From: Nannocystales bacterium
GTDB lineage: Bacteria > Myxococcota_A > Polyangia > Nannocystales > Nannocystaceae
Assembly (NCBI GenBank): GCA_050633305.1
Contig: JBOEGF010000008.1
Coordinates: 288,001 to 352,000, forward strand
Length of the DNA stretch: 64,000 nucleotides
Direction of reading: 5' to 3'
Made by a program: the position numbers and the translations under genes. Of this stretch, positions 37,753-54,308 are shown in pieces (position 1 is the stretch's first letter; each line of letters opens with the position of its first letter). The notes below the pieces were generated by a model, which worked only from the letters and a program-made list of their open reading frames with translations, searched no databases and had not been told where the DNA came from.

Positions 37753-40008
37753 CTACAGAACGATGACAAACGCGTCCTTCTCCCGGAGCGCCGCGTGAGC
37801 CGAAGAGTCTCGCACCACCACGTGGATCGTCTGACTCCGCATCGAACCCGCTGCGAGACGCACCGCGATCGGGCTCATCACATGTTCTTCGATCACCCGC
37901 TTGAGCGGCCGAGCCCCACGGGTGGGATGCCAGCCGAGTTCCGCGAGTCGGGCACGAGCCTGTGGATCGACCGACAGCACCAACTCGCGCTCGCGTAGCC
38001 CCTGACGTTTCCCAGTCTTGCTCAGCTCGAGATCGACGACGCGCAGGATGTCATCACGGGAGAGCAGACCGAACGGGACAACGTTGTCGATGCGGTTGAA
38101 GAACTCCGGTCGGAAGTGAGCTCGCACGGCCCCAAAGAGAGCGTCGTGGGATGCGTCCGGCGCTCCAAACCCCGCGCTCGCGGTCTTCTGCACCCCCAGG
38201 TTGCTCGTCATGACCACCAACGTCATTCGGAAGTCGACCAGGCGGCCCTCGCTGTCGGTCATCCGCCCTTCCCCAAGCATCGCAAGCAGAAGGTCAAACA
38301 CCTCAGGGTGTGCTTTTTCAATCTCGTCGAGCAGCACCAACGACAGCGGCTGTGCGCGGACCTGTTCGACCAGGCTCTGCACGCCCTGGCCGACCGACAG
38401 CAACCGTTGGCCGGACCCCGGAAGCATGTACTCGCTCATGTCCAGCCGAACCATGCGCTCACTGTCCGAGAACATGACCCGGGCCAGTTGCTTGGCGAGT
38501 TCCGTCTTGCCGACACCCGTCGGGCCCACCAAGAAGAGACTGCCGATGGGGCGATCCGGGTCGCACAAGCCAGCCTTGAAGCGCGTCAGGACGCCGGCTG
38601 CCGTGTGGCAAGCGTCGTCCTGTCCAACGACGCCGTTGCGAAGGCGCGAGGCGATCTGCTCCCGCCCAGCGACCTCGCGGTCGGAGATCAATGCCAACGG
38701 GAGGCCGGTCGAACGTGCAAACGCCTCGGTGACCGCCTGTGCGCTCATTTCCTGGGGCTCGTCGCTGGGCTCGGTCTGCGCGAGCCAGTCGAGAAAGCGA
38801 AACCCTTTTCCCGGAAACCCACGATCTCGAGCAAAGAACTCGAGCAGCTGGACCATGGTGCGCAGCGCCTCGCTGGAGAAGGTGCGGTCCGCATCCAACC
38901 GGGCCTGATACTCCGCGAGCCGGTGCGGCATCACGGAACTCGTGGTCGGCTCGACCCTCACCACGAGAAACTGCGAGACGAAGGCAGGGTGTTGAGCGCT
39001 GAGCCGTTCGTACTCCTCGACGTTGCACTCCGCGATCACCACGAGTTCGCCAACGCGCATCGAGGCAGACAACATGTCGGCGATCGACGTGCTGGTCTGT
39101 GTGGCGCAGATCGGAGCCAACCGGTCCACATACAACACGTCGCGCGAAGCCGAGAGCTCCTCGATCAGGTCGAGGCAGCGCTGCTCCCACTCGCCGAGGT
39201 ACTTCATCCCTGCAACGATGCGGTCCGCGCTTGTGGACCACACGCGCGGAGCATCGGCACCGCGGCGCCCCAACGAACGAGCCAGCGAGCGAACCCACGT
39301 GGACTTTCCCGCACCCGGAGGGCCGACCAGCAAGACGGAGCGAGGATGCTCGCCCGCCATGAGCTCGACATAGCGCGGCTCGACAACGTCGCCGATCACC
39401 GGTCGTCTGCGACTCTTGCGCTGCTCGGCCGTCATGTCCTGCGCGACCGCGTCGAGAGTGTTCTGCGCCTCGAAACCGGAGGACCAGCTCGAAGGCCGAG
39501 CTCGGGTCGCATACGGCGGCGTCCACGACACGATGCGTTCGTCTTCGAGCCCGCGGAAGTCGAACATCGAACGAGCCTCCTCCCCAAGCATCGACTGGCC
39601 GATCGCCTGCCGGATGACCGTGGGTGCCATGTCGACGTCCTCGAGCACGAACCACCATCCGAACCGAGGAAGCATGACCAGGGCGCCACCGTCGGCGTTC
39701 TGGGTCCAGGCATAGCTGACCTGCAGCGGGATGGTCTGCTTGCCGATGACGGTGCGCTTCTTGACCACCCGCTGGGGGTTGACCTGCACCTTGACTCGGC
39801 GGACCTGCAGCGTCTCTTCCCACAGGAACCCCTCCAGCCGCTCGTCCGTCTCTTCGAGCGCGAGCGAGAGCTGAGAGAGGACAACCTCTTCGCTCGGGCC
39901 GTGCCCGGCGAGCGGTGAGGACAGCGTGCCACTGCGCGAGAGCAACCTGCCGGTATGGCTCCCGTCGTGGTGGGTGACGAAGTGAACCCGGTACGTAGGC
40001 CGAGCCAT
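37753..40008 (-). CDS. Atypical ClpA/B-family double-AAA+ ATPase (third gene of operon, 751 aa)
   Basis: GPPGAGKS; GPTGVGKTE, DMSEY, LLDEIEKAH, RPEFFNRID, GARPLKR; TAATG overlap with the upstream gene. Confidence 0.9.
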   Translation of the reverse strand: MARPTYRVHFVTHHDGSHTGRLLSRSGTLSSPLAGHGPSEEVVLSQLSLALEETDERLEGFLWEETLQVRRVKVQVNPQRVVKKRTVIGKQTIPLQVSYAWTQNADGGALVMLPRFGWWFVLEDVDMAPTVIRQAIGQSMLGEEARSMFDFRGLEDERIVSWTPPYATRARPSSWSSGFEAQNTLDAVAQDMTAEQRKSRRRPVIGDVVEPRYVELMAGEHPRSVLLVGPPGAGKSTWVRSLARSLGRRGADAPRVWSTSADRIVAGMKYLGEWEQRCLDLIEELSASRDVLYVDRLAPICATQTSTSIADMLSASMRVGELVVIAECNVEEYERLSAQHPAFVSQFLVVRVEPTTSSVMPHRLAEYQARLDADRTFSSEALRTMVQLLEFFARDRGFPGKGFRFLDWLAQTEPSDEPQEMSAQAVTEAFARSTGLPLALISDREVAGREQIASRLRNGVVGQDDACHTAAGVLTRFKAGLCDPDRPIGSLFLVGPTGVGKTELAKQLARVMFSDSERMVRLDMSEYMLPGSGQRLLSVGQGVQSLVEQVRAQPLSLVLLDEIEKAHPEVFDLLLAMLGEGRMTDSEGRLVDFRMTLVVMTSNLGVQKTASAGFGAPDASHDALFGAVRAHFRPEFFNRIDNVVPFGLLSRDDILRVVDLELSKTGKRQGLRERELVLSVDPQARARLAELGWHPTRGARPLKRVIEEHVMSPIAVRLAAGSMRSQTIHVVVRDSSAHAALREKDAFVIVL

Positions 40009-43000
40009 TAGTCTTGCTCCTTCGCGTTCATCGACGCGCCCATGCGCAGCAGCCAGACCGTGTCCAACGCCTCCCGAAGACTCGCGCTGCGACCCCGGTA
40101 GGCGTACATCAGCGGGTAGTCCTCGACGTCGATCCACGCGAGTGCGCCGGGTGTGGGGGGGTCGAACGCGTAGCGCCGCACGATAGGGAGTAAGCCGTCG
40201 GGGTTGGCCGGGGGGCTGTCCGCGGTCTCGATCGCGGTCGAGAACGCCTCTCGCCCCGCCTCCAAGCGATCGAGATGCTCCTCGAGTTCAACGCCGTAGC
40301 CAGGGAGCGCCCGCACCCGAACGACTTCGGTTCCCCCGCTGACCGAATCGCGAACATGCGAGCCTTCCTCAGGTCCATAGAACGCCTGGGCGCCCGGCCC
40401 CACGATCCGAAGCAGCGCTCGACGGGGGCCTGAGACGACGGCCTCCGGGTGCGAGTACCGACGACCAGCGTCGTCGATGATCAGGCTCGCTTCGACATCA
40501 CCGCGCCCGGCTCGATACGCCTGAAGTAGCCAGTCGAACAGACCTTGGGACGACTCACCAAACCGCGATGCCCGATGGACGCCACTGACCCGAGTCAGCT
40601 CGATCAGGACCACGTGCGCCGAAGGGTCCGCCCCGCGCTCGACCGCGCGTTCGAGGAATCGAAGGGTGCCCAGCGTTCGCAAGAAGTCCTGGCGCCCCTG
40701 CAGCGGAAGCGAAGGACCCGGCTGCCGCCCCAGCACCCGGACCTGCACCTCAATTCCCCCCCCTCCGAAAGGTTCGGTTCGGGCCTCGGTCGCGAACGAT
40801 TCGTGTTCCACAATCTCCCCTTCGTAGTCGGCCCGCTCATCGAGCGGACGCGAAGCAGCGAGCATGGGGTCGTACTCGAGTTGCATCCGTAGGTCGTCCG
40901 CGAGGCCGCGGACCTCCGCCCGCAACGCCTCCAGGTCGGCGGCGTCCGACTGGCCCTCGGCGCTCTGGCGGGCCACCTCGTCGCTGAGGGTGTCGCTGAG
41001 CCGCGCCAGAGCATCGGAGTCGGTCAGCGCTTCCGCACGCGCCAAGGCTTCGGGGACCTCGGCCCGAAGTTGCTTGCCCGAGAATGCCAGCGCCGCTTCG
41101 AGGGGACTGCTGGATCCAAAGGCTTCTGCCTCGGCCAGCGTTTCACTGTGGAGGCGAAGCGCCCCCTCTCGCTCGAACAACCACAACATCCGCATCGCGG
41201 AAGCCTCCGAAGCTGCCAGCGAGTCCGCCAGCAGGCTCCCCACATTCGACTCCAGATAACGTTTTAGGGATCGAGCCCCATCCTTGGCCGCGAATCCTTC
41301 TCGGACGACCCGCGCGACGACGCTGGGCGTGTAACGAACGAAGACGTTGCGGTCGACCAACCCACGGCGTGACACCAGCTTGTCGAGCTCGCGGCGAGCG
41401 ATACTCGATGCAGCCTCTCGACCGAGCGGTCCGTACTCCACCACATGATCGATCCGGTTGAACAGCTCGGGGGGAAAGAACGCTCGAACCGCGGCCCCCA
41501 CGTCGGAGATGTCCGCGTCCTCGCCTCCGAATCCGACCGAGGGCGTCTTCTTCGCGCCAAGGTTCGACGTCATGATCACGATGGTGTGCGTGAAGTCGAC
41601 GCGTTGTCCGGCGGCGTCGGTGAGGCGGCCGTCGTCGAAGAGCTGAAGCATCAGGTTCAGCACCGAGGGGTCCGCCTTCTCGATCTCATCGAGGAGCACA
41701 ACCGAGAACGGCTGCGCGCGGACCTTGGCGGTCAGGGTGCCCTCGGGGTTGAAGCGGTCTCCGATGAGCCGAGACGGCGCGTCCGGAGTCCCATACTCAC
41801 TCATATCGAACCGCAGCAGGCGCGCAGTCGTTCCGTAGAGGTAGTCCGCGAGGCACTTGGCCATCTCGGTCTTCCCGGTCCCGGTCGGGCCGGTGAACAG
41901 AAAGACCCCGAACGGCCGTGAAGGGTCACAGAGCCCGGCCTTGATGCGTACGACGACGTCGCGCATCGCGGCAACGGCCGCCTCCTGCCCCATGATCTGC
42001 GAACGCAGCTGCCGCGACACCGACTCCGGATCGAGCGGTCGCTTGGCGTCGAGGAGCACCGCGGGCATGCCCGTGCGTCCCGACAGGTGCCCGATGACTT
42101 CCTGAGCACCGATGTCGGGCCGTCGCGTGCTGCCCTCACTCTGCTCGTCAAGAAGCGAGCGCGCGACTTCGGGTCGACTCGAGGCCCGTTTGGGTGTCGG
42201 GCCCCAGTGCCCGGTGGCCATCCGCGCTTCGACTGCGGTCTTGGCCTCACGCAGCCCGCAGCCGACCTTGGCTCGGTACGCCTTGATCGCCAGGATCTTC
42301 TTTCCGAGCTTGAGAGCATCATCGGCCTCGCGCAGGTTGAGGGGCCCCTGCGAGTCTCCGGTCGCGAGCTGCCGCAGCAGGTCCAGCGCCTTGCCCGGTT
42401 GTGCCCCTGCCCCGCCCAGGCTCCCGCCCAGGTCGTGCAGCATGCGGAAGATCAGCGGGTCGAACGCAACGCCACGCTCGCGCTCATACCGCCTCGCCTC
42501 CTGCACCAGCATCCGCAATGTCTCGTCACGCTCGGTCGGCTCGACGAACACCGTGGTGAACGCGGCGGCGAATCCCGGCGCCTCGTCCTGGAGCTGCGCA
42601 AGGCCTTCAGGCGAGCACTCGGCGAATGCCATCAGCTCGTTGCGCATCATCGGGCCACGGAAGAACGTCGCGAGGGCGCGATCACTGCCTCGCGTTTGTC
42701 CGATCCGCCCCCAGCCCGCGATGTCTTCGATCCACAGCACGCCGCGATGCTTGCGACAGGCTTCCACGATGTTGACGCAGCGCTCTTCCCACTGGCCCAG
42801 GTAGGACATGCCCGCGATGACTCGCTGTCCACGGACCTTCCAGACCTTGTGGATCTTGTCCAGGTTGCGGTGGGAGGGGTAGTCGTCCGCGCTGAGTAGG
42901 TCCACCACCAGCTGTTGAAGCAGGCAGCTCTTGCCCGCCCCGGAAGGACCCACAAGGAGCACGGATTTCTTCTGCCGACCACATGCAAGCTGGGCCAAGG

Positions 43001-43679
43001 TGTCGCGATACGGCGCGCGTGCGATGACCGGGTCCGCGACGCCGTCGACAACATGCATCGTGGCGCATGAGCCCAACCGGGTGAGGAGCGCCTCACCGGT
43101 CGGCCCCGATCCCCCGCCTAGCAGCGCCGGCGGCTTGTCTTTCTTTTTCTCGAGCTTGGCCTCGAGCGGTTTGGGCGAGATGGAGAACGCGACCAGCTCC
43201 AGCTTGTCCTTCTTCTCGGACTCCAACGAGGATAGCTCGTCCTCGGGAAGGTCCGCCCAGTCCACCTGGAAGAACGCCTTGGCTTCATCGGCCAACTCCC
43301 GCTCCTCCTCGTGCACGAACCAGGCGCCGGGCCGCAACGGGTGATAGGCGACGAGAATCGGGCCGGGCACCGCGCCTCCCCGGGTTCTCGGCTCGACCAC
43401 GATCGGCACCGTCCCGTAGAACCGTGAGCGCGCACCGCCGTTGCGCATCGAGAGGTCCAGCCGCACCAAGTGCAGCCGCCGTCCGCGAACCGTCTCCAGG
43501 GGTTCGAGTTCGTGGGGGAAGAGTTTCGCGACCCGTTTGCGTACCCCGTCCATGAGCCGCTGGCGGGCCTTGGCGGCACTCGAGGCGGACACCGTCGTGC
43601 AGAATGGACCCACACCAACCGTGGTCCAATGCACACGGCGTCCGGAGACCCGGGAGAAAACCGAGAGTCTCACCTCCAT
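40008..43679 (-). CDS. Atypical ClpA/B-family ATPase with L7/L12-CTD-like insert and release-factor-like C-terminus (second gene, 1223 aa)
   Basis: GPSGAGKS; GPTGTGKTE, LLDEIEKAD, GARSLKR; KILAIKAYRAKVGCGLREAKTAVE; GGAGGAGG Shine-Dalgarno. Confidence 0.88.
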   Translation of the reverse strand: MEVRLSVFSRVSGRRVHWTTVGVGPFCTTVSASSAAKARQRLMDGVRKRVAKLFPHELEPLETVRGRRLHLVRLDLSMRNGGARSRFYGTVPIVVEPRTRGGAVPGPILVAYHPLRPGAWFVHEEERELADEAKAFFQVDWADLPEDELSSLESEKKDKLELVAFSISPKPLEAKLEKKKDKPPALLGGGSGPTGEALLTRLGSCATMHVVDGVADPVIARAPYRDTLAQLACGRQKKSVLLVGPSGAGKSCLLQQLVVDLLSADDYPSHRNLDKIHKVWKVRGQRVIAGMSYLGQWEERCVNIVEACRKHRGVLWIEDIAGWGRIGQTRGSDRALATFFRGPMMRNELMAFAECSPEGLAQLQDEAPGFAAAFTTVFVEPTERDETLRMLVQEARRYERERGVAFDPLIFRMLHDLGGSLGGAGAQPGKALDLLRQLATGDSQGPLNLREADDALKLGKKILAIKAYRAKVGCGLREAKTAVEARMATGHWGPTPKRASSRPEVARSLLDEQSEGSTRRPDIGAQEVIGHLSGRTGMPAVLLDAKRPLDPESVSRQLRSQIMGQEAAVAAMRDVVVRIKAGLCDPSRPFGVFLFTGPTGTGKTEMAKCLADYLYGTTARLLRFDMSEYGTPDAPSRLIGDRFNPEGTLTAKVRAQPFSVVLLDEIEKADPSVLNLMLQLFDDGRLTDAAGQRVDFTHTIVIMTSNLGAKKTPSVGFGGEDADISDVGAAVRAFFPPELFNRIDHVVEYGPLGREAASSIARRELDKLVSRRGLVDRNVFVRYTPSVVARVVREGFAAKDGARSLKRYLESNVGSLLADSLAASEASAMRMLWLFEREGALRLHSETLAEAEAFGSSSPLEAALAFSGKQLRAEVPEALARAEALTDSDALARLSDTLSDEVARQSAEGQSDAADLEALRAEVRGLADDLRMQLEYDPMLAASRPLDERADYEGEIVEHESFATEARTEPFGGGGIEVQVRVLGRQPGPSLPLQGRQDFLRTLGTLRFLERAVERGADPSAHVVLIELTRVSGVHRASRFGESSQGLFDWLLQAYRAGRGDVEASLIIDDAGRRYSHPEAVVSGPRRALLRIVGPGAQAFYGPEEGSHVRDSVSGGTEVVRVRALPGYGVELEEHLDRLEAGREAFSTAIETADSPPANPDGLLPIVRRYAFDPPTPGALAWIDVEDYPLMYAYRGRSASLREALDTVWLLRMGASMNAKEQD

Positions 43680-43680
43680 C

Positions 43681-46600
43681 TCAGGCCTCCTCCTGATCCA
43701 GGGAGTCCGCAGCGCGCCCAGCAAACTGGACCCGCTCCAATGCCGCGGCGTAGTCGGTCAACGCCGAAAAACTAAACTGTGCACGAGGCTCTTCGTGCAC
43801 CACTTGCCACCGGCCATCCTGCACCGTCCAACCTCTCGCCGGCGTCTCCCGGAGGAGTTCATTCGTCTTGCGGGCTGCCGGGATCACGTACACATCGCCC
43901 TTGAACGGCTTCCGCGGGCACAACGTGGTCAAAGGAATGTCGTAGGTGTCGCTCATCGTCGACAGCTCCAGGACATCGACCCTGTCGCCGCTCTCCGCTT
44001 GAAAGTGCCACAAGCCCGTTTCGTGGCCGAGCAGCGGCTCGGCCAGACTTCCACGGACTCGAATCAAGACCTCCGACCACCGTGAACGCGCCTTTTCAGT
44101 CTCGGTCTCTCGTCGTTCCCGCCACCACCCGAGAGTCCGCGGAGGGCCGTATCGTCCCTTGGCTGGCCACCCTTCCTCAGACTCAGGGTCACCGACGCGA
44201 TGCAGTGTGACGTCCCAACCTCGGGCCCGTGCCGCCGCGTCGATGATCGACAGGACCTCATGGGTCCGACGTCCCCCCGGTGAGCGCGCGAACAGACAGA
44301 TGCGGTCGCCGCCCTGAAACGAGGCGAGCAGTCGGACGAACGCGCGTTCGAAACGTGCGAACGCCTCGAGTGCTTCGGTGACGAAGAGGTCGGCCCCCGC
44401 GCCTTCGAGCACGGCCGCCATCGCGAGTTCCTCCGCGTCCGCGATCGCGTCGGCATGTTCCGTTGCTTCTCCCATCACCCCCTGGAGCAGTCCGAGCTCA
44501 GCGGCGGTCTGGCCCGCGCCTGCGGTGGTGTCACTGGGCTTGGCACCCGCGAGATCCGCGATCAGATAATCCAGACGTTCGCGAATGGTCTGAACGCGGG
44601 GTCCGTACATGCATCGGTCGGCGGTCCGTCGAAGCGCCGCGACGGATCCGAGTTGATGCACCCCCTGCCGACGCTGAGTCCCTAGCGGACGCATCACGGA
44701 GATCGACAGATCCCTCGATTCCTCGAGCGCCTCACGGGTGAACCCTTCGGGGAGTTCCGGAGACTCGTCGCCCGGACGCGAGACCGCGAGCAAGGCACCA
44801 TCGAGAACCTCGGCGTGTGTCGCCATCGCAGCACAGACGGGTCCAACCAGTGCAGACTCGAGATGCCTTCGGAGCGCCCGCGCGCCGTACTCCGCCGAGT
44901 ATCCAGCCTCGGCGAGCCCATCGAGCGCTTGCTGCGAGACCTCCAGTTCGGTCGCACGTCCCAGCAGCCCATCGCGTTCGACGACCTTTCTCATGGCGAC
45001 CTCGGCGACCGCCGAGACCTCGCTTCGCTGCAGCGCTGAGAAGGGAATCACCCGGTCGATCCGCCCCACAAACTCCGGCCGAAAGTGCTTGTCGACCTGC
45101 TCCAAGTAGTAGGACGCGATCGCGTCCGGCTCATTGGTCGCGGTGGAGGCAAACCCCGCGTCAGGGCGCCTCAATGCGGCCCCAAGGTTGCTCGTCATGA
45201 TGATGATCGCGTTGTTGAACCAGGTCGTTCGGCCACGAGCATCCGACAGACGCCCCTCGCCACACACCTGCAGCAACAGATCGAACACAGCGCTGTGGGC
45301 CTTCTCGATTTCATCCAGCAGAATCACGCAAAACGGCTGCTGTCGGACCCTCCGGGTCAGCTCCCCCTCCTCTCGGAGCGTCCCACGGATGAGCCGGTCG
45401 GCGGCGAGCGGGTCCATGTACTCGGACATGTCAAAGCGGACCATCCGGTCGCCGCTGCCGAACAGGAACTGCGCCAGGGTCTTCGCGACCTCGGTCTTGC
45501 CGACTCCGGTTGGTCCGATGAACAAGAAGTTCGCCAGCGGTTTACCGGGCGGCTGGAGGTTCGCCTTCACCATGCAGACCGTCTCTGCCACCTTGCGCAC
45601 CGCCTCCTGCTGACCGATCACCCGGCGGGCGAAGAAGCGCTCGACCTCATCCAGCTTGACCGCCCGATCCTCCTTCAGCAGGAACAGCGGAATCCCCGAA
45701 CGAGCAGAAAAGGCGCGATACACCTCCGTCGGCCCGATCGATTTCGGCGAACCATCCTCGCTCACCTCGGCTTCATGAATCGCCCGCAACTCGTCGTGGA
45801 GCCGAATCGCCTTTCCGGGAAAGGCCTCGTACGCGAGGTAGCGCTCACACAGGTCGAGCAAGGGCGGAAGCGCCGCGCTCGCGAGGGAGGGTCGATGTGG
45901 TTCGTGCGCACGTGCGTGCGCGGCCCGAGCCTCGAGGACCGGGCGCGTCGCATCTTTGTCCAGCGGCTCGACCGTCACCCGAGACAACGCAGCGAAGAAA
46001 CCGACGTGCATCTTCTCGTAGTGCGAGACCTGCTCGGGCGTGAGTTCGCCGACCACCCGCACTCGGTCTTGGGTGACGTACGGAAGCATCCCCGACACCA
46101 TGTCGCCGATCTCCCCAGGACGCCCGGAGAGCAAGTCGCCGAGGTTGTCGAAGTACACGATCGCATCGAGTTCCTCGGCGGCCTTCATCACGTCGGCGAC
46201 GCGCTGCTCGAGTTCGCCGAACCCCGACTGACCAGCGACGAGCTGTGCCCCTGAAGTCGCGATGACCATGCGGCCACCGAGCGGGTCGGGTCCGCTCCCG
46301 TGCACCGCCCGAGAGACGAGACCGTGCATCAACGCCGACTTGCCCGCGAGCTCCCGCCCGATGAGCAGAACACTGAGCCGTTCGCCCCCGCCGAGCAGAC
46401 CCGTCAGGGCATCGATCTCGTCCGAACGCTCGAGCACGTCCGGCTGACGTTCCTTGCGATGCAACGACCGCAGCGGGGTGCCGATCTCCGAGAGAAGCTT
46501 CTCCCCTGCTCCACGCTCCCGACTCTTCGCCCGTTTGCGTCGGCTGTGCGCCCGGGCCCCCGCATCCGCCGCATCTTCGCGACTCACCGAGAGCTTGAGC

Positions 46601-47082
46601 TGGTGAAGCCCGTGCCGCGCGGCCGGCAACCGCGTGAGCATCTCGGTTGCGGAGAGACCCTGAACCTTCGCAGCTCTCTGTGCGGCCTCCGCAACAACAC
46701 GATGCAGGTCATCAGCCTGCTCCACGTAGACGAATGTCTCCAGCGGGAGAATCTGGACCCAGAAGGACCGGTCGTGCGGGATGATGACGCAGGCCATCGT
46801 GACTGGTTTCGTGACGGCGATCCGCCGAGGAAGATCCGAGCGAGACAACAACACCGGGACCTCCACCATCGTCGCGTCACTCGGCAGCGAAAACGTCGCC
46901 AAACTCGCCGCAGGGACCTTCTGGAGGTAGAGGGTGAGGAAACGCTCCTGTTGTTGGAGCGCCGCCTCCACCGAGGTCGTGCGGCTCGCCAACTTCGGGT
47001 CGACCAACGGGTAGGCGTACACGCCACCGCTCGTCATCTCCCTCACCACCATCGTCGCGTCGAGCTCGACTGCCGTCGCCAT
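43681..47082 (-). CDS. Atypical ClpA/B-family ATPase with release-factor-like C-terminus (first gene, 1133 aa)
   Basis: GRELAGKS; FPGKA; GPTGVGKTE, LLDEIEKAH, RPEFVGRID, GARALRR. Confidence 0.88.
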   Translation of the reverse strand: MATAVELDATMVVREMTSGGVYAYPLVDPKLASRTTSVEAALQQQERFLTLYLQKVPAASLATFSLPSDATMVEVPVLLSRSDLPRRIAVTKPVTMACVIIPHDRSFWVQILPLETFVYVEQADDLHRVVAEAAQRAAKVQGLSATEMLTRLPAARHGLHQLKLSVSREDAADAGARAHSRRKRAKSRERGAGEKLLSEIGTPLRSLHRKERQPDVLERSDEIDALTGLLGGGERLSVLLIGRELAGKSALMHGLVSRAVHGSGPDPLGGRMVIATSGAQLVAGQSGFGELEQRVADVMKAAEELDAIVYFDNLGDLLSGRPGEIGDMVSGMLPYVTQDRVRVVGELTPEQVSHYEKMHVGFFAALSRVTVEPLDKDATRPVLEARAAHARAHEPHRPSLASAALPPLLDLCERYLAYEAFPGKAIRLHDELRAIHEAEVSEDGSPKSIGPTEVYRAFSARSGIPLFLLKEDRAVKLDEVERFFARRVIGQQEAVRKVAETVCMVKANLQPPGKPLANFLFIGPTGVGKTEVAKTLAQFLFGSGDRMVRFDMSEYMDPLAADRLIRGTLREEGELTRRVRQQPFCVILLDEIEKAHSAVFDLLLQVCGEGRLSDARGRTTWFNNAIIIMTSNLGAALRRPDAGFASTATNEPDAIASYYLEQVDKHFRPEFVGRIDRVIPFSALQRSEVSAVAEVAMRKVVERDGLLGRATELEVSQQALDGLAEAGYSAEYGARALRRHLESALVGPVCAAMATHAEVLDGALLAVSRPGDESPELPEGFTREALEESRDLSISVMRPLGTQRRQGVHQLGSVAALRRTADRCMYGPRVQTIRERLDYLIADLAGAKPSDTTAGAGQTAAELGLLQGVMGEATEHADAIADAEELAMAAVLEGAGADLFVTEALEAFARFERAFVRLLASFQGGDRICLFARSPGGRRTHEVLSIIDAAARARGWDVTLHRVGDPESEEGWPAKGRYGPPRTLGWWRERRETETEKARSRWSEVLIRVRGSLAEPLLGHETGLWHFQAESGDRVDVLELSTMSDTYDIPLTTLCPRKPFKGDVYVIPAARKTNELLRETPARGWTVQDGRWQVVHEEPRAQFSFSALTDYAAALERVQFAGRAADSLDQEEA

Positions 47083-48524: not shown

Positions 48525-51428
48525 GTGTATTCGACGCAACACTACGGAGCCGACCGAGACGGCGTCGACACCAACGCCGACGCCGAGGTCACCCTCGCTG
48601 ATGGCGAATCCGGCCCGTCGCAGGCTCGATCTCCGTTCGAGCGCGGCGAGACGCTCGGCCGCTACGTGGCACTCGATACGCTGGGGTCCGGCGGAATGGG
48701 CATCGTGCTCTCGGCGTACGACTCGAAGCTCGACCGGCGCGTCGCCCTGAAACTTCTCCATCCCCACACCGGGGCCGACCCCGAAAACCACGCCCGGCTG
48801 ATCCGTGAGGCCCAGGCTCTGGCCAAGCTCTCCCACCCCGGCGTGGTCGCTGTCTACGACGTCGGTGAGCTTCGAGGCCAAGTCTTCATCGCGATGGAGT
48901 TCATCGACGGGCCAAACCTCCGCAGCTGGACCCACGAGGCGAAACGCAGCACGGCTGCGGTCCTCTCCGTGTTCCGCGACGCCGCCCGCGGGCTGATCGC
49001 GGCGCACGACGCCGGCATCGTTCACCGCGACTTCAAGCCAGACAATGTGCTGATCGACCCCAAGGGTCGTGCCCACGTCACGGACTTCGGCCTCGCCCTG
49101 GAGTCCCACGAAGTCGTGCAAAACCTGTCAGCCTCGTCGCGGTCTGACTCGTCACACTCCAGTTCGTCTCGACTGACCGAGACGGGCATGGTGATGGGCA
49201 CGCCCGCGTACATGCCCGTGGAGCAGCACGCAGGGAACCCAACCGATCATCGCTCCGACCAGTTTTCGTTCTGCGTATCGTTCTACGAAGCCCTGTATGG
49301 GGTACGCCCGTTCTCCGGAGCCAACGCGACCGAGCTGTGCCTGTCGATCAAGCGGGCAGAGATTCCCCCGCCCCCCGCAGGCGTCTCGGTCCCCCGACGA
49401 GTGCACCGCGCCATCGTCAAGGGCCTCGCGCTCAAGCCCGAAGGACGGCACGCCTCGATGCGCGCGCTGCTTCGCGCAATCACCCCGCCCACGCGAAACC
49501 GCCGCACGTGGGTCTTCGGAGGGCTTGGAGGACTCACCATCGGGGCCGGTGTTGTGGCCTTCGCGGAGCCCCCGGCCCGGCCTTGCTCGTCGTTCCGGGC
49601 ATCCATCGAGGACGTCTACGGGAGCGAGCAAGAGTCGAAGATTCAAGCCGCGTTCGAGTCCTCCAAACTCGCGTATGCGGGAGCGTCGTTCGAAGCGACG
49701 GACCGAACCCTCGACCGCTTCACCGACGCCTGGGCGACCGCTGCGACCGACGCATGCCTCGCCACCGAGCGAGGCGAGCAGTCCGACCATATGCTCGACC
49801 TCCGCATGCACTGCTTGGATCGGGCTCGGTCCCGCTTGAGCGCGACCGTTGAAGTCTTGAGCGAGGCCAGCCCGGAGATTGTCCACCAAGGCATGGCTCT
49901 GGCATCCAACCAGGTGGAGCTGGAACTGTGCGGGGACCTCGAGGCGTTGCAACGCACCGTGGTCCTGCCTGCGGATGCCGAGGAGGCCGCCGAGACAGAG
50001 CAACTGTTCACCGCGATCGACCGCATGGAAGCGATGCGTAGCGCAGGCAAGAAGGAGGACGCCAAGATGCTGTTCTCCGACTACGAAACCCGCCTGGCGA
50101 GCAGCGACTTCCCCCCCGTCGTCGCCTCCGCAGCCTGGATCCAAGGACGGCTGGTGGGAACCGACAACAGGGCGAGCGAAGCCATCACGCACTTCAGGCG
50201 CGCCTACTTGGTGTCCCTCGAACACGGTCTGGACGGACTCGCTGCCAACGCCGCGAGTTCTCTGGGCTTCTACTACAGCGAGTTCCAGCTCGACTTGGTG
50301 GAGGCGGAGCACTACCTCGATGTCGCTGCGGCGCTTGCGAAAGCCTCGGGCTCTGTTCAGGCCCAATCCGGGGTCGCCGGCAACCTGTCCACCCTCCGCA
50401 GACGGCAGTCCCGCTACGATGAAGCGGTCGCGTCCGCGCAAGAGGCTCTGAGCTTGGCGAAGACGCAGAAGGCCACCCGCCCCTTGCAGGTCGCCGAAGT
50501 CCACGTCCAGCTGGCGAACGTCCTACGACTACGCGATGGACCCAAAGCCGCGATCCCAACCCTGCTCGAAGCGCGCGACGATGTCCTGGCCGAGTTGGGG
50601 TCGGTCCACCCGGTCCTCGTCGGCATCTACCGCGAGCAGGCGGGGGTCGCCCGCGAACTCGGCAACTACGACGAAGCGTTTGTCCATGCGAGTGCCGCCC
50701 TCGAACAAGCGCGTGCAGCCTATGGAGAAGGCAGCCTCGACGAGGCCTATGAGCTCGCCAACCTTGCGACCATCGCCGGTTCGTTGGGCCGCAAACGGGA
50801 GTCCCTCGACATGCTCGCGCGCGTCGACGAGGTGTTCGCGCGCGAGCAGGGGGAAACCCACCCCGTCCGTGCGGCGGTGATGAACAACCGAGCGACGATT
50901 TTCACGGAGCTCGAGCAATGGGACGACGCCGAGGCATCGTTTCAGGACGCGCTGCGGATCGCCCAAGCGAACGCCGATGGCCCCGACGGTCTCTCGGTCA
51001 CTCTCAACCGAAACCTCGCACTCGTCGCCCTGTACGGGGCCGAGCTTTCCAAGGCAAAAAAATACGCAGATGCAGCCCTCGCCGGTGGGCTCGGTGTCCA
51101 TGGCGAGGACCACATGGACACCGGCATGACGCATGCCGTCCTCGGCCGGATCGCGCTCGCACACAACGAGTTCGAGGTCGCGCGTGCCTCCTTGCAACGT
51201 GCCGTCACGATCGGACACGACCTGTTCTCGGAGGAGGCCGCCACGCGCTTCTACCTCGCGCGTGCTTTGGTGGAAGACCCCGCCTCAACCCCGGAGGAAA
51301 CACGCAGGGGACTGTCCATGGCCCGAGCCGCCGAAAAGGAAATCGCAAAGGCGAGCGACGTCGAGCGTACGCACACCGAAATCCTTGAGTGGCTCGGCGA
51401 ACACGACAAGGGGTTCAGCCCAGGCTAA
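48525..51428 (+). CDS. Ser/Thr kinase-TM-TPR protein, paralog 1
   Basis: GSGGMG, VALK, HRDFKPDN, DFG, GTPAYMP; TM; TPR-like helical repeats. Confidence 0.92.
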   Translation: MYSTQHYGADRDGVDTNADAEVTLADGESGPSQARSPFERGETLGRYVALDTLGSGGMGIVLSAYDSKLDRRVALKLLHPHTGADPENHARLIREAQALAKLSHPGVVAVYDVGELRGQVFIAMEFIDGPNLRSWTHEAKRSTAAVLSVFRDAARGLIAAHDAGIVHRDFKPDNVLIDPKGRAHVTDFGLALESHEVVQNLSASSRSDSSHSSSSRLTETGMVMGTPAYMPVEQHAGNPTDHRSDQFSFCVSFYEALYGVRPFSGANATELCLSIKRAEIPPPPAGVSVPRRVHRAIVKGLALKPEGRHASMRALLRAITPPTRNRRTWVFGGLGGLTIGAGVVAFAEPPARPCSSFRASIEDVYGSEQESKIQAAFESSKLAYAGASFEATDRTLDRFTDAWATAATDACLATERGEQSDHMLDLRMHCLDRARSRLSATVEVLSEASPEIVHQGMALASNQVELELCGDLEALQRTVVLPADAEEAAETEQLFTAIDRMEAMRSAGKKEDAKMLFSDYETRLASSDFPPVVASAAWIQGRLVGTDNRASEAITHFRRAYLVSLEHGLDGLAANAASSLGFYYSEFQLDLVEAEHYLDVAAALAKASGSVQAQSGVAGNLSTLRRRQSRYDEAVASAQEALSLAKTQKATRPLQVAEVHVQLANVLRLRDGPKAAIPTLLEARDDVLAELGSVHPVLVGIYREQAGVARELGNYDEAFVHASAALEQARAAYGEGSLDEAYELANLATIAGSLGRKRESLDMLARVDEVFAREQGETHPVRAAVMNNRATIFTELEQWDDAEASFQDALRIAQANADGPDGLSVTLNRNLALVALYGAELSKAKKYADAALAGGLGVHGEDHMDTGMTHAVLGRIALAHNEFEVARASLQRAVTIGHDLFSEEAATRFYLARALVEDPASTPEETRRGLSMARAAEKEIAKASDVERTHTEILEWLGEHDKGFSPG

Positions 51429-51440
51429 CGGGCGGCCGCG

Positions 51441-54308
51441 ATGGAGACGCACGGCTACGAGGGCCCCGAGCAAGCGACGCGTTCGGACGCTGAGGCCACG
51501 GTGACCGACGCGACGCGGGACGACGCCCCACGGCCTCCTTTCGCGCGGGGAGAGTCTCTGGGGCGCTACGTCGTCCTCGACACCCTCGGCGCGGGAGGCA
51601 TGGGCATCGTCTTGGCGGCGTACGACACCACCCTCGACCGGCGGGTCGCTCTGAAGCTGCTGCATGCCCACACCTCCGCCGATCCCGGAAACCACGCCCG
51701 CCTGCTCCGCGAGGCTCAAGCGCTGGCGAAGCTATCTCACCCGCGTGTCGTCTCGGTGTACGACGTCGGCGAGCTGCGAGGCCAGGTGTTCATCGCGATG
51801 GAATTCGTCGACGGCCCAAACCTGCGCCAGTGGCTCCGAGAGAAGGAACGAACGCCAGCCCAGATTCTCAAGGTCTTCCGCGGCGCTGGGAAAGGACTGC
51901 AAGCGGCGCATGACGCCGGCATCGTCCACCGCGACCTCAAACCAGACAACATTCTCATTGGGCCCAACGGCAAAGCCTACGTCACAGACTTCGGCCTGGC
52001 ACTCGAGGCCGACGTGGTCCCCAAGTCGTCCAGCACGCGCTCGTCGTCCGCCTGGTCGTCCTCCCGCCTGACCGAGACCGGTGCTGTGATGGGAACGCCC
52101 GCGTACATGCCGATCGAGCAACACGCCGGTCTCATGACCGACCACCGTTCCGACCAGTTCTCGTTTTGCGTGTCCCTATTCGAGGCTCTTCATGGCCTCC
52201 GACCGTTCTCCGGCACGAACGCGAGCGAACTGTGTCTGGCGATCGGGCGCGCCGACCTGCCGACGAGTCCGAACACCGTGGCGCGCAGGGTCCGACACGC
52301 GCTCGCCCGCGGGCTCTCGCCCAAGGCCGAAGACCGTTTTCCGTCAATGCGCGCCCTACTTCGGGCCCTCTCCCCACCGACCCGCAGCAGTCGCACGTGG
52401 GTGTTTGGCGGCGTAGGAGGACTCGTCCTCGGCGCAGCTCTCGTCGGTCTTGCCGACCCCTCGAGTCCCCCCTGTGCGTCACTGGGCGACCGCGTTTTGG
52501 GTGTCTACGGCCCACAGCAGCGAGAGCAGCTCGAGTCCGCGTTCGCGGCGACCGGGCTGCCGTATGCAAAGGCATCCTCCGTAGCGACGACCGCAGCACT
52601 CGATGCCTTCGCGACCCAGTGGACGTCCTCCGCACAGGAGGCCTGCCTGGCGTCCGAGCGCGGCGAGCAGTCTGGCGCGATGCTCGACCTCCGGATGCTC
52701 TGTCTCGATCGCGGGCTCCTCGCGTTGTCGGCGACGGTCGAGATCCTCGCGACGATCGAACCGAAGGAGCTTCGGCGATCCGCGAAGATCGCCTCCGGCC
52801 TGCCGAACCTCGCGCTGTGCGAGGACCTCGAAGCGCTCCCGAAACTCGCCATCCTTCCGGCGACACCCGAGCAGGCCCACGACGCCGAGACCCTGCTGCC
52901 GATCGTTGACCGCATCCGAGTGCTCGTCATCGCCGACCGACAAAAAGAAGCCCAGACGCTCCTCGACACCCATGCACAGGAACTCGAGCGAAGCACGTAC
53001 CCGTTTGTGCAGACGCTGCACCGGACCTGGCAAGGACGACTGCTCTTCTCGCGACGCGAACAAGCGACCCCCGAGGTCCTCCGTCAGGCACACCTGCTTG
53101 CCCTCGAGCACGGACTGGACGCGCAGGCCTCACGCACCGCCACCGCCCTGGGCACCTGGCATTCGGACAAGAAGCAGTTTGACGCCTCGATTCGATGGTT
53201 CGAATCCGCGGGGGCGCTGGCGCGAGCGGCCGGCTCGACACGACTCCAAGCCACCGTGGCCTCGACGTCGGCCGGGGTCTACTCCCAAGCAGGACGCCAC
53301 GATGACGCGATCGCCCGCACTCAACATGCACTCCAACTGACCGAGGACGACGAATCGTACCCCCCAAGAGCACGGGTCGAACTCCTGCTGTCCCACGCAA
53401 GGGCACTGCAGTACCGAGACGGTGAGCGAGCCGGACTCGAGGAGATTCACGAAGCCCGCGCGCTCATAGGGGAACTCGACGGCGACGCTCCGGTGATCGC
53501 ATCGATCGAGACCAAGCTGAGCGAGTTTGCGATGAACCGGGATGACGTTGCCGCGGCGCTCACCCATGCAGAAGAAGCCCAGCGCATTACGGAGCTCCAC
53601 TACGGACGCGACTCCCTGCGATACGCCGCTGCGCTGACCAACGTCGCCATTCCGATGAAGGAGCTGGGCATGGTCGACGACGCGCTCGGCCGACTCGCCG
53701 AGGCTCTCGACATCTTCCGAGGTCCCTCCAACTACGCACCGGGCACCGCACAAGTGCTGATCAACATGTCGGTCGTCCTGCTGGTCGACGGGAGAGACGA
53801 TCAGGTTCGGCGACGACTCGACGAGTTGACAACCCTCATTCACGAAGCGCACTTCGAAGGTACCGAGCTCCAAGCGCTCGAGTTTCAGCTCCGGGCCTCT
53901 GTCGAGCGTCAGGACGGGGAGATCGAGCGGTCGCGAACCCACGCGACTCAGGCGCTAAAACTCCTCGAGAAGCAGTTCGGCGAAAAGCACCATCGTCTTG
54001 CCGATGCGCGCACGCTCCTCGCGTACGCCGAGCTTGAAGCAGGCGAGTACGACACCGCGCGGCGGCTTGTCGAACGGGCTCGGGAGGCCCGCACAACGGT
54101 CCCCGCCGATCGGGCGCTGGGTTCGTTCGTCCTCGCGCGGATTCTCTGGGAGACCGAGGGCGCTTCACCGAGTGACCGAAAGCAAGCGGTTCAGCTCGCT
54201 CGTTCTGCCCTCGCCGACTACGAGCAGTCCCCGCCCTACGTTCGCCACCGCGCAGAGGTCCGTGCCTGGATCGAAGCCCACGAGAACGACGTCGAGCCGA
54301 CCCCGTGA
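51441..54308 (+). CDS. Ser/Thr kinase-TM-TPR protein, paralog 2
   Basis: Same architecture; HRDLKPDN. Confidence 0.92.
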   Translation: METHGYEGPEQATRSDAEATVTDATRDDAPRPPFARGESLGRYVVLDTLGAGGMGIVLAAYDTTLDRRVALKLLHAHTSADPGNHARLLREAQALAKLSHPRVVSVYDVGELRGQVFIAMEFVDGPNLRQWLREKERTPAQILKVFRGAGKGLQAAHDAGIVHRDLKPDNILIGPNGKAYVTDFGLALEADVVPKSSSTRSSSAWSSSRLTETGAVMGTPAYMPIEQHAGLMTDHRSDQFSFCVSLFEALHGLRPFSGTNASELCLAIGRADLPTSPNTVARRVRHALARGLSPKAEDRFPSMRALLRALSPPTRSSRTWVFGGVGGLVLGAALVGLADPSSPPCASLGDRVLGVYGPQQREQLESAFAATGLPYAKASSVATTAALDAFATQWTSSAQEACLASERGEQSGAMLDLRMLCLDRGLLALSATVEILATIEPKELRRSAKIASGLPNLALCEDLEALPKLAILPATPEQAHDAETLLPIVDRIRVLVIADRQKEAQTLLDTHAQELERSTYPFVQTLHRTWQGRLLFSRREQATPEVLRQAHLLALEHGLDAQASRTATALGTWHSDKKQFDASIRWFESAGALARAAGSTRLQATVASTSAGVYSQAGRHDDAIARTQHALQLTEDDESYPPRARVELLLSHARALQYRDGERAGLEEIHEARALIGELDGDAPVIASIETKLSEFAMNRDDVAAALTHAEEAQRITELHYGRDSLRYAAALTNVAIPMKELGMVDDALGRLAEALDIFRGPSNYAPGTAQVLINMSVVLLVDGRDDQVRRRLDELTTLIHEAHFEGTELQALEFQLRASVERQDGEIERSRTHATQALKLLEKQFGEKHHRLADARTLLAYAELEAGEYDTARRLVERAREARTTVPADRALGSFVLARILWETEGASPSDRKQAVQLARSALADYEQSPPYVRHRAEVRAWIEAHENDVEPTP

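Follow-up and report, generated by a model that had tools for sequence, protein, structure and literature searches.

The minus strand of a 64,000-nucleotide stretch of a Nannocystales bacterium genome (assembly GCA_050633305.1, contig JBOEGF010000008.1, positions 288,001 to 352,000; this whole stretch is referred to here as the window) carries three consecutive genes for Clp proteins with two AAA+ modules each, which we designate A, B, and C. A preliminary description of this DNA had reported three paralogous double-AAA+ genes of 1133, 1223, and 751 amino acids (aa), joined by a 1-nt gap and a TAATG overlap, and the open reading frames (ORFs) and the sequence confirm this arrangement. The genes and their junctions are as follows.

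43681..47082, minus strand: subunit A gene, 1133 aa; HicB-like N-domain, degenerate first AAA+ module (D1), intact second AAA+ module (D2), and a C-terminal module derived from release factors (RFs) RF1/RF2
40008..43679, minus strand: subunit B gene, 1223 aa; N-domain, D1, an L12-like helix pair at the M-domain position, D2, and a diverged RF-like module
37753..40008, minus strand: subunit C gene, 751 aa; N-domain, D1, and D2, with no C-terminal module
43677..43683, minus strand: A/B junction; TGA, one nucleotide (G), then ATG, with a GGAGG Shine-Dalgarno-like sequence upstream, within A
40006..40010, minus strand: B/C junction; TAATG stop-start overlap

All three proteins match AAA_2 and ClpB_D2-small. 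As previously described, they lack Clp-N repeats (Clp_N is listed for none of A, B, or C) and the ClpB M-domain, the D1-D2 linker spanning only 34 to 67 residues in the B proteins that have no insert. They resemble class-1 Hsp100/Clp proteins (ClpA, ClpC, ClpB, and ClpV; TIGR02639, TIGR03346, and TIGR03345) in having two AAA+ modules, D2-small, and intact D2 motifs, but differ in being three codependent paralogs with a HicB-like N-domain in place of Clp_N, no coiled-coil M-domain, a D1 without the catalytic glutamate, no GYVG motif, and an RF-derived C-terminal module. Their scores of 217 to 343 bits compare with cutoffs of 885 to 1417 for ClpA/ClpB/ClpV. With ClpA/ClpC they share an LGF-type loop, but they score 274 to 301 bits against a cutoff of 993, Clp_N is not listed, and the N-domain is of another fold; unlike ClpB, they have no long coiled-coil M-domain and do have a ClpP-type loop; and they differ from ClpV/TssH in score (228 to 247 bits against 885) and in that no type VI secretion system (T6SS) family was found among the ORFs scanned. 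The GC content at third codon positions is 0.77 to 0.81 for A, B, and C, similar to a neighboring gene; no promoter of the sigma-70 type was found for the operon, and terminators are not in excess.

Conservation and co-occurrence of the three genes

A locus scan with C as the query gave 68 loci, 56 of which are of the window's subtype. The order A-B-C is present in 44 of these 56, the remainder consisting of four B-C loci on contigs too short to contain A, two loci too short, one locus with B-C only, and five with C alone. Of the 42 loci where each gene is single and of full length, 33 have an A/B junction within -10 to +15 nt and 38 have a B/C junction in this range, with the proviso that starts were picked by alignment to the window's proteins, which may favor tight junctions. 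The operon is split in 6/56 loci, and for four of these six all three genes are located elsewhere in the genome. Across the order, N-domain profiles of A, B, and C are positive in the same 25 of 50 genomes, and the other 25 are positive for none; these 50 genomes are kin and do not amount to 50 independent tests. Positives for the C profile further include 42 of 151 genomes from a different myxobacterial family and 16 of 301 from the phylum, with few candidates scored per genome. The proposal that the genes are coupled and interdependent is thus borne out by all-or-none presence, conserved order, and tight junctions, and likewise by retention of the genes when unlinked, by subunit-specific pore loops, and by a natural B-C fusion.

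The close homologues are labeled Nannocystaceae/Myxococcota. A second, distant subtype, with 32 to 38% identity to the window's proteins, has the same long-long-short triplet and tight junctions in myxobacteria (loci L076-L078, L081-L083, and L086); the myxobacterial locus L079 has all three genes with a wider A/B gap. Records bearing the titles Verrucomicrobiia, Holophagae, Pirellulaceae, and Thermoguttaceae (L062, L063, L065, and L057) contain it as well. Genes of both subtypes apparently reside together in a single genome in G003 (C152, C160) and in G513 (C566). At E≤0.001 the family extends to 588 representatives, a number that probably includes some true RFs, and at E≤1e-30 to 162. Its sequences are publicly labeled as routine ClpA/B/C or 'AAA family ATPase', and several B- and C-type proteins (P0205, P0182, and relatives) are mislabeled 'citrate:sodium symporter'. 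In a quick tree of 91 AAA+ cores, the A, B, and C proteins of the window's subtype form three separate clades, each with support of 100, and none of them groups with the four other double-ring Clps of the genome, although this tree does not resolve the deep branching and splits each second-subtype group in two.

In Myxococcus virescens, B and C are fused in frame in a 1892-aa protein (P0312), found on two contigs, which clusters with the separate B and C proteins of Myxococcus xanthus. Because one lost stop codon would produce such a fusion, its weight as evidence is modest. There are also single-gene Clp-RF2 relatives without an adjacent paralog (L080:6561-9389, minus strand; L119:2926-5880, plus strand), which have no N-domain and whose clearly RF2-like module keeps a domain-3 remnant without GGQ; no relative of this type was found in the window's own genome. 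Five further Clp proteins (P0289, P0292, P0295, P0297, and P0299) have precomputed PCRF matches with domain 3 cleanly deleted, and form a clade of their own together with L080. The L080/L119 proteins are likely an ancestral or sister family. By eye, the N-region of three of the five PCRF-annotated proteins is HicB-like.

Specialized paralogs share one AAA+ ring in Pex1/Pex6 and in the proteasomal Rpt ring; these belong to different AAA+ clades and serve as analogy only. We consider it quite probable that A, B, and C likewise form a hetero-oligomer. An alternative is that they are three separate homo-hexamers acting sequentially or on different substrates of one pathway, as would fit the complete D2 with its own arginine finger in each subunit, the existence of single-gene relatives, and the six split loci; the all-or-none presence, tight junctions, and in-frame B-C fusion all argue the other way, and this arrangement strikes us as very unlikely.

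ATPase rings and pore loops

The subunit alignments comprise 44 A, 47 B, and 53 C proteins, with 13 frameshifted or truncated loci and proteins of <700 aa excluded. In the window, the AAA+ modules are as follows.

45673..46485, minus strand: D1 module of A, aa ~200-470; Walker A is GRELAGKS, Walker B is YFDN and lacks the catalytic glutamate, and the pore loop AGQSGFG has no tyrosine
44773..45672, minus strand: D2 module of A, aa ~471-770; retains Walker A/B, sensor 1, the arginine finger, and sensor 2, lacks GYVG, and has AGF at the position of the ClpP loop
41160..42107, minus strand: B D2 module, aa ~525-840; catalytic motifs intact, VGF loop, an aromatic residue in a shortened pore loop
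37804..38736, minus strand: C D2 module, aa ~425-735; catalytic motifs intact, AGF loop, no GYVG

The two rings have very different motif states. The Walker A lysine of D1 is retained family-wide, and the Walker B 'DE' is present in none of the A, B, or C proteins (0/44, 0/47, and 0/53); a conserved arginine at the D1 finger position was not seen in B and C. Walker A and B, sensor 1, the arginine finger, and sensor 2 of D2 are near-invariant in all three alignments. The D2 pore loop is shortened and without GYVG, with an aromatic residue (W/F/Y) at this place in 40 of 47 B proteins, and a G[YF][VI]G motif occurs anywhere in the protein in only two B sequences (0/44 A, 2/47 B, 0/53 C, and 0/33 second-subtype proteins). 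In the D1 pore loop, tyrosine is present in 38/47 B and 50/53 C proteins, and Gly-Phe is found instead in A, giving each subunit its own signature: G-F-G in A, AGMSY-GQW in B, and AGM-YLG-W in C. These signatures recur at the same gene positions in the second subtype, and we therefore argue that the triplet had one origin.

A loop of the ClpP-docking type is also retained at the level of the motif, with its glycine in 40/44 A, 47/47 B, and 53/53 C proteins, mostly followed by F, I, or L; Ala or Ser often occupies the first position of the loop in A and C. PMC10149685 describes the Gly-Phe-type loop of ClpA/ClpC as the ClpP docking site, and we lean toward a partnership of the triplet with ClpP. 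In ClpA, as PMC8666677 reports, ATPase activity is stronger in D2 than in D1, and the unfolding of stable substrates depends most on the D2 loops, although D1 loops can translocate; by analogy, the motor formed by A, B, and C would probably thread weakly or in an unusual manner. For A, the full-length model is poor in D2 and the N-domain (predicted local distance difference test [pLDDT], 52), and its D1 and residues ~923-1133 were used; Foldseek with this model gave Clp rings only, among the matches listed.

Accessory domains and their likeness to translation components

Each subunit begins with a related N-domain.

46573..47082, minus strand: A N-domain, aa 1-170; two beta-beta-beta-alpha units, with HicB antitoxin N-domains as the best structural matches
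43164..43679, minus strand: N-domain of B, aa 1-172; a homologue of the A N-domain (hhalign probability 97.1, E 7e-11)
39499..40008, minus strand: N-domain of C, aa 1-170; likewise a homologue of the A N-domain (hhalign probability 97.6, E 4.5e-12)

The three pairwise comparisons of these domains (probabilities 97.6, 97.1, and 81.7) establish them as homologous. When a model of the A N-domain (pLDDT 87) was compared with 48,161 chains, the top six matches were HicB or HicB-like (Z 8.6 to 6.4; root-mean-square deviation [rmsd], 2.9 to 5.0, over 68 to 98 residues). Since these Z values lie within the range of a common fold, the likeness in the model is a lead on fold and not an indication of membership. 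Foldseek with the A N-domain gave no match at E≤0.001, the C N-domain had no Atlas match, and the A N-domain alignment showed no recurring Pfam family, with no Pfam HicB match among 30 members. The domain further differs from the HicB antitoxin N-domain in its tandem duplication within one chain, its 6 to 12% identity, and the lack of hicA among the neighboring ORFs scanned. Kinship of the N-domain with RFs was also considered from rows with Z of 4 to 5 to RF domain 3; with an alignment probability of <1, these were treated as reflecting a common fold.

The C-terminal modules of A and B are of a different kind.

44317..44640, minus strand: A helical region, aa ~815-922; aligns with RF domain 1 (hhalign, 31 RF1/RF2 sequences); low pLDDT
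43684..44316, minus strand: superdomain 2/4 of the RF module in A, aa 923-1133; lacks domain 3 (GGQ) and has a shortened recognition loop
40035..41102, minus strand: B RF-like C-terminal module, aa ~860-1215; no GGQ domain

The A tail is RF1/RF2 derived. The model of residues 923-1133 superposes on RF1 (6osk_A; Z 12.9, rmsd 3.0, 150 residues) and also on RF2 and mitochondrial RF1, a profile built from 37 A tails matches RF2 and RF1 chains (best E 3.4e-6), Pfam PCRF is matched by 12 of these 37 tails at E≤0.1, and hhalign of the A tail with 31 RF1/RF2 sequences gives a probability of 97.2 across domains 1 and 2. The B module is homologous to that of A (hhalign probability 92, E 7e-7) and its RF likeness is weaker: hhalign with the same 31 sequences gives a probability of 45 and a score of 39, where 15 block shuffles reach at most 19, and PCRF is an Atlas lead (0.84), but the B tail alone has no RF match among PDB sequences or in Pfam. 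A profile of the B tails of the window's subtype did not detect those of the second subtype. The release-factor-like C-termini of the preliminary description therefore stand firmly for A and less so for B, and C has no such tail.

These modules share with RF1/RF2 (PF03462 PCRF and PF00472 RF-1) the fold of superdomain 2/4 (in A, and putatively in B), a preceding helical domain 1, and the motif E-x-G-x-H, but they have neither domain 3 with its GGQ nor the SPF/PxT loop, are fused behind an ATPase, and show only 12 to 16% identity. The distance from E-x-G-x-H to the C-terminus is 113 residues in A and 120 in B, against 183 to 195 in RFs, which corresponds to the loss of domain 3 (~65 to 70 residues); among 150 A-type tails, 4 contain a GGQ, and its position is scattered. 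Because there is no GGQ domain, peptide release by the A and B modules is excluded. The arrangement of RF domain 1 and superdomain 2/4 is kept across phyla. The single-gene relatives L080 and L119 and the five PCRF-annotated proteins keep the RF2-type (F/L)W(D/N)DP motif of domain 1 (W-D/N-D/E-P), and the L080 tail matches RF2 at E 3e-12; since such relatives keep this motif, the pattern suggests that the tails are of RF2 origin and decayed stepwise.

The third accessory element lies in B.

42225..42302, minus strand: helix pair of B resembling L7/L12, aa 460-485, located between D1 and D2

A profile of this insert matches L7/L12 chains (best E 6e-4) at Escherichia coli residues 65-91, which we take to be helices 4/5 of bL12. 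The likeness to the L7/L12 C-terminal domain put forward in the preliminary description is thus real but partial, covering positions 11-36 (26 of 67) of the Pfam bL12 domain PF00542 at 21 bits, below the curated cutoff of 25.9, and the insert is not a core part of the machine, because only 13 of 47 B proteins carry it at the M-domain position. Although lineage restricted, the pair is found at three different sites: in addition to that in B, it stands at the extreme C-terminus in 2/44 A proteins and 13/150 representatives, and inside the RF-like module of A in L083 and, by eye, in L078. Carriers keep K, I, K/R, R, G-L, and K in 11 to 13 of 13. It resembles the bL12 C-terminal domain in this helix pair alone, and differs in its extent, in its presence in a minority of proteins, and in its varied position. 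PMC3677378 describes RF3 on the ribosome as bound by helices 4 and 5 of L12, and RF domain 1 as touching both L11 and RF3 at the periphery. One corner of the ribosome is thus the origin of both borrowed modules, and fusion at the N-terminus of an RF is sterically plausible.

That all three accessory modules look like binding partners minus their catalytic parts raises another explanation, in which the RF2-, L12-, and HicB-like modules are decoys for translation-targeting toxins or phage proteins (HicA-type RNases or release-factor binders), which the ring would unfold or pass to ClpP. The rapid divergence of the accessory parts, the shifting of the L12-like pair between sites, and a patchy presence mostly in large genomes would all suit such a bait. 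However, no HicA or toxin family is found among the 134 ORFs of at least 90 aa that flank 37 loci, one would expect a decoy to lie closer to the host RF2 than 12 to 16%, and the HicB match is middling and to a common fold. We regard this explanation as unlikely.

Genomic context, a probable Myxococcus xanthus counterpart, and candidate functions

The host genome is 11.0 Mb in 90 contigs, and clpP (C24, C9), clpS (C18), and four other double-ring Clps all lie on contigs other than that of the triplet; canonical ClpA- and ClpB-type proteins are present in this genome. In agreement with the reported absence of adjacent clpP, clpS, and T6SS genes, T6SS, ClpP, and ClpS families have no match in the 31 further ORFs of the window or in the three direct neighbors. 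A downstream short-chain dehydrogenase/reductase (SDR) gene is not counted as part of the operon. A fourth conserved operon gene was considered and rejected; flanking clusters recur only among close kin (78 loci), and the largest of them resemble shadow ORFs. Elsewhere in the window, three tandem paralogous Ser/Thr kinase-TPR genes of 967, 955, and 952 aa (48525-57163, plus strand) are typical of myxobacterial kinase expansions. Other Clp genes observed include a divergent double-ring Clp of ~830 aa on a long branch (G000:C4:123302-123784, minus strand), which has the D2 GYVG loop and no canonical D1 pore loop or Walker B by pattern search, and, at two loci (L052:43-1080 and L053:95-1156), a D2 fragment of a Clp of canonical type, situated ~2 kb upstream of the operon. 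A typA/bipA gene (L057:12576-14375) lies directly downstream of a second-subtype operon, once in 37 loci.

The preliminary description had also raised the prospect that the machine shuts off translation upon phage infection. The patchy distribution would be compatible with this, and an A-site plug without GGQ could block ribosomes, but the 134 flanking ORFs (called by a crude codon-bias filter) gave PADLOC matches for only eight, all to generic ATPase, kinase, protease, NUDIX, receiver, or helix-turn-helix domains with no recurring system; A, B, and C themselves match PADLOC solely via their AAA+ domains; and searches of 72,556 plasmids and 50,697 phages, with one N-domain query each, gave no match. 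Neighbors, plasmids, and phages thus lend no support to a defensive role, which we hold to be most improbable.

A probable counterpart of the window's triplet is present in M. xanthus. The three proteins MXAN_4823 to MXAN_4825 have 1149, 1127, and 836 aa, respectively, according to PMC11423568, and are described in PMC6617876 as one three-gene Clp operon; they are annotated as ClpB or ClpA/B family. Among M. xanthus proteins, one of 1127 aa is of the B type within the second subtype, and the next accession is a C-type protein of 764 aa. The match rests on species, length, and order, the DK1622 accession not being among the 15 of 52 cluster members listed. MXAN_4823-4825 would differ from the window's triplet in belonging to the second subtype, and the passages of the literature dealing with them give ClpA/B labels and an expression change, with the architecture unmentioned. 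Chloramphenicol is reported to induce all three (log2 fold changes of 3.57/2.67/2.61 and 1.47/2.17/1.92), with 1.19 for clpC, and PMC6617876 interprets the induction as general proteolysis.

These expression data bear on a further alternative, that the triplet is a heteromeric general-stress Clp unfoldase or ClpP partner whose RF2-derived module has become a scaffold for substrates or adaptors, with no link to translation left. Induction of clpC by the same drug (PMC6617876) speaks for this alternative, which further accommodates the RF-like modules being the most diverged and having lost both functional loops, the retention of the ClpP-type loop, and neighbors without a translation context. 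It does not account for the gain of the L12-like motif at three separate sites in the same proteins or for the maintenance of the RF domain 1 and 2/4 arrangement across phyla, and canonical ClpA- and ClpB-type proteins are already available in the genome. We rate it as rather unlikely.

The reading that we tentatively favor, at slightly under even weight, is an obligate heteromeric Clp directed at stalled ribosomes or translation factors. Its substrate and direction of action we infer as follows. As noninterchangeable subunits, A, B, and C would together make up a single ring of the class-1 Clp kind (by analogy a hexamer, for example A2B2C2), with D2 hydrolyzing ATP as the power source and D1 binding nucleotide without hydrolysis and gripping substrate by aromatic pore loops that differ from subunit to subunit. 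The tails of A and B, derived from RF2 and capable of neither peptide release nor stop-codon reading, may act as docking arms for the ribosomal A-site or factor-binding region, and the L12-like helix pair could be an optional additional contact for translational GTPases. A component of stalled or drug-arrested ribosomes would then be removed or remodeled, and the extracted component probably passed to ClpP via the retained [VILA]GF loops. That the target is the translation apparatus we judge to be evenly balanced.

Several observations weigh against this ribosome-directed reading. The tails have only 12 to 16% identity to RFs, and the SPF/PxT stop-codon recognition loop is shortened, with the motif absent in aligned members. 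Mean pairwise identity is lowest in the RF-like modules (0.30 to 0.38, compared with 0.50 to 0.56 for D1 and 0.59 to 0.64 for D2), and this poor conservation counts against a strict rRNA-binding role, in which the surface would face conserved rRNA. The active ring is without GYVG and, given the role of the D2 loops in ClpA, strong threading is therefore doubtful. Pfam assigns the 134 flanking ORFs to unrelated housekeeping and signaling genes with no recurring family, and a single one of them encodes a translational GTPase (BipA). The operon is absent from half of the genomes searched in the order and is therefore not essential; a matching A was not found in one split-operon draft genome and B was not found in another; and single-gene relatives indicate that a one-subunit form exists. 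The chloramphenicol data concern a distant subtype matched by length and order, and the response could be a general proteotoxic one.

Known bacterial Clp ATPases are described (PMC8666677, PMC10149685) as homo-oligomers with Clp_N domains and GYVG loops, and a search for a prior description of the triplet architecture found none in the open-access literature; the main text of a release-factor survey (PMC6514570) has no occurrence of 'Clp' or 'PCRF'. The triplet is apparently a real, conserved, and undescribed variant of the Clp family. New here are the HicB-like N-domain in all three subunits, the single-gene Clp-RF2 relatives, the B-C fusion, and the probable M. xanthus counterpart. A more ambitious version of the ribosome-directed reading, which we consider doubtful, is a bacterial ribosome quality-control motor in which disarmed RF2 copies carried by an obligate three-paralog Clp ring would enter stalled A sites independently of a stop codon, extract a factor or ribosomal protein or split the particle, and feed ClpP. 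An AAA+ ATPase is coupled to a release-factor-like protein in Cdc48-Vms1 ribosome quality control (PMC6514570), although this is analogy only, Cdc48 being of a different AAA+ clade and Vms1 having the unrelated aeRF1 fold. If such a motor exists, it would parallel Pelota/ABCE1 or Vms1/Cdc48 in its logic while being assembled from unrelated components, and would occur in Myxococcota, Planctomycetota, Verrucomicrobiota, and Acidobacteriota. A three-paralog Clp with a dead first ring, altered pore loops, and RF-derived tails would be a new Clp class and would put the RF2 fold to a new use, and its probable counterpart in the genetic model M. xanthus, reportedly responsive to a ribosome-stalling drug, would make both the hetero-ring and the ribosome link directly testable.

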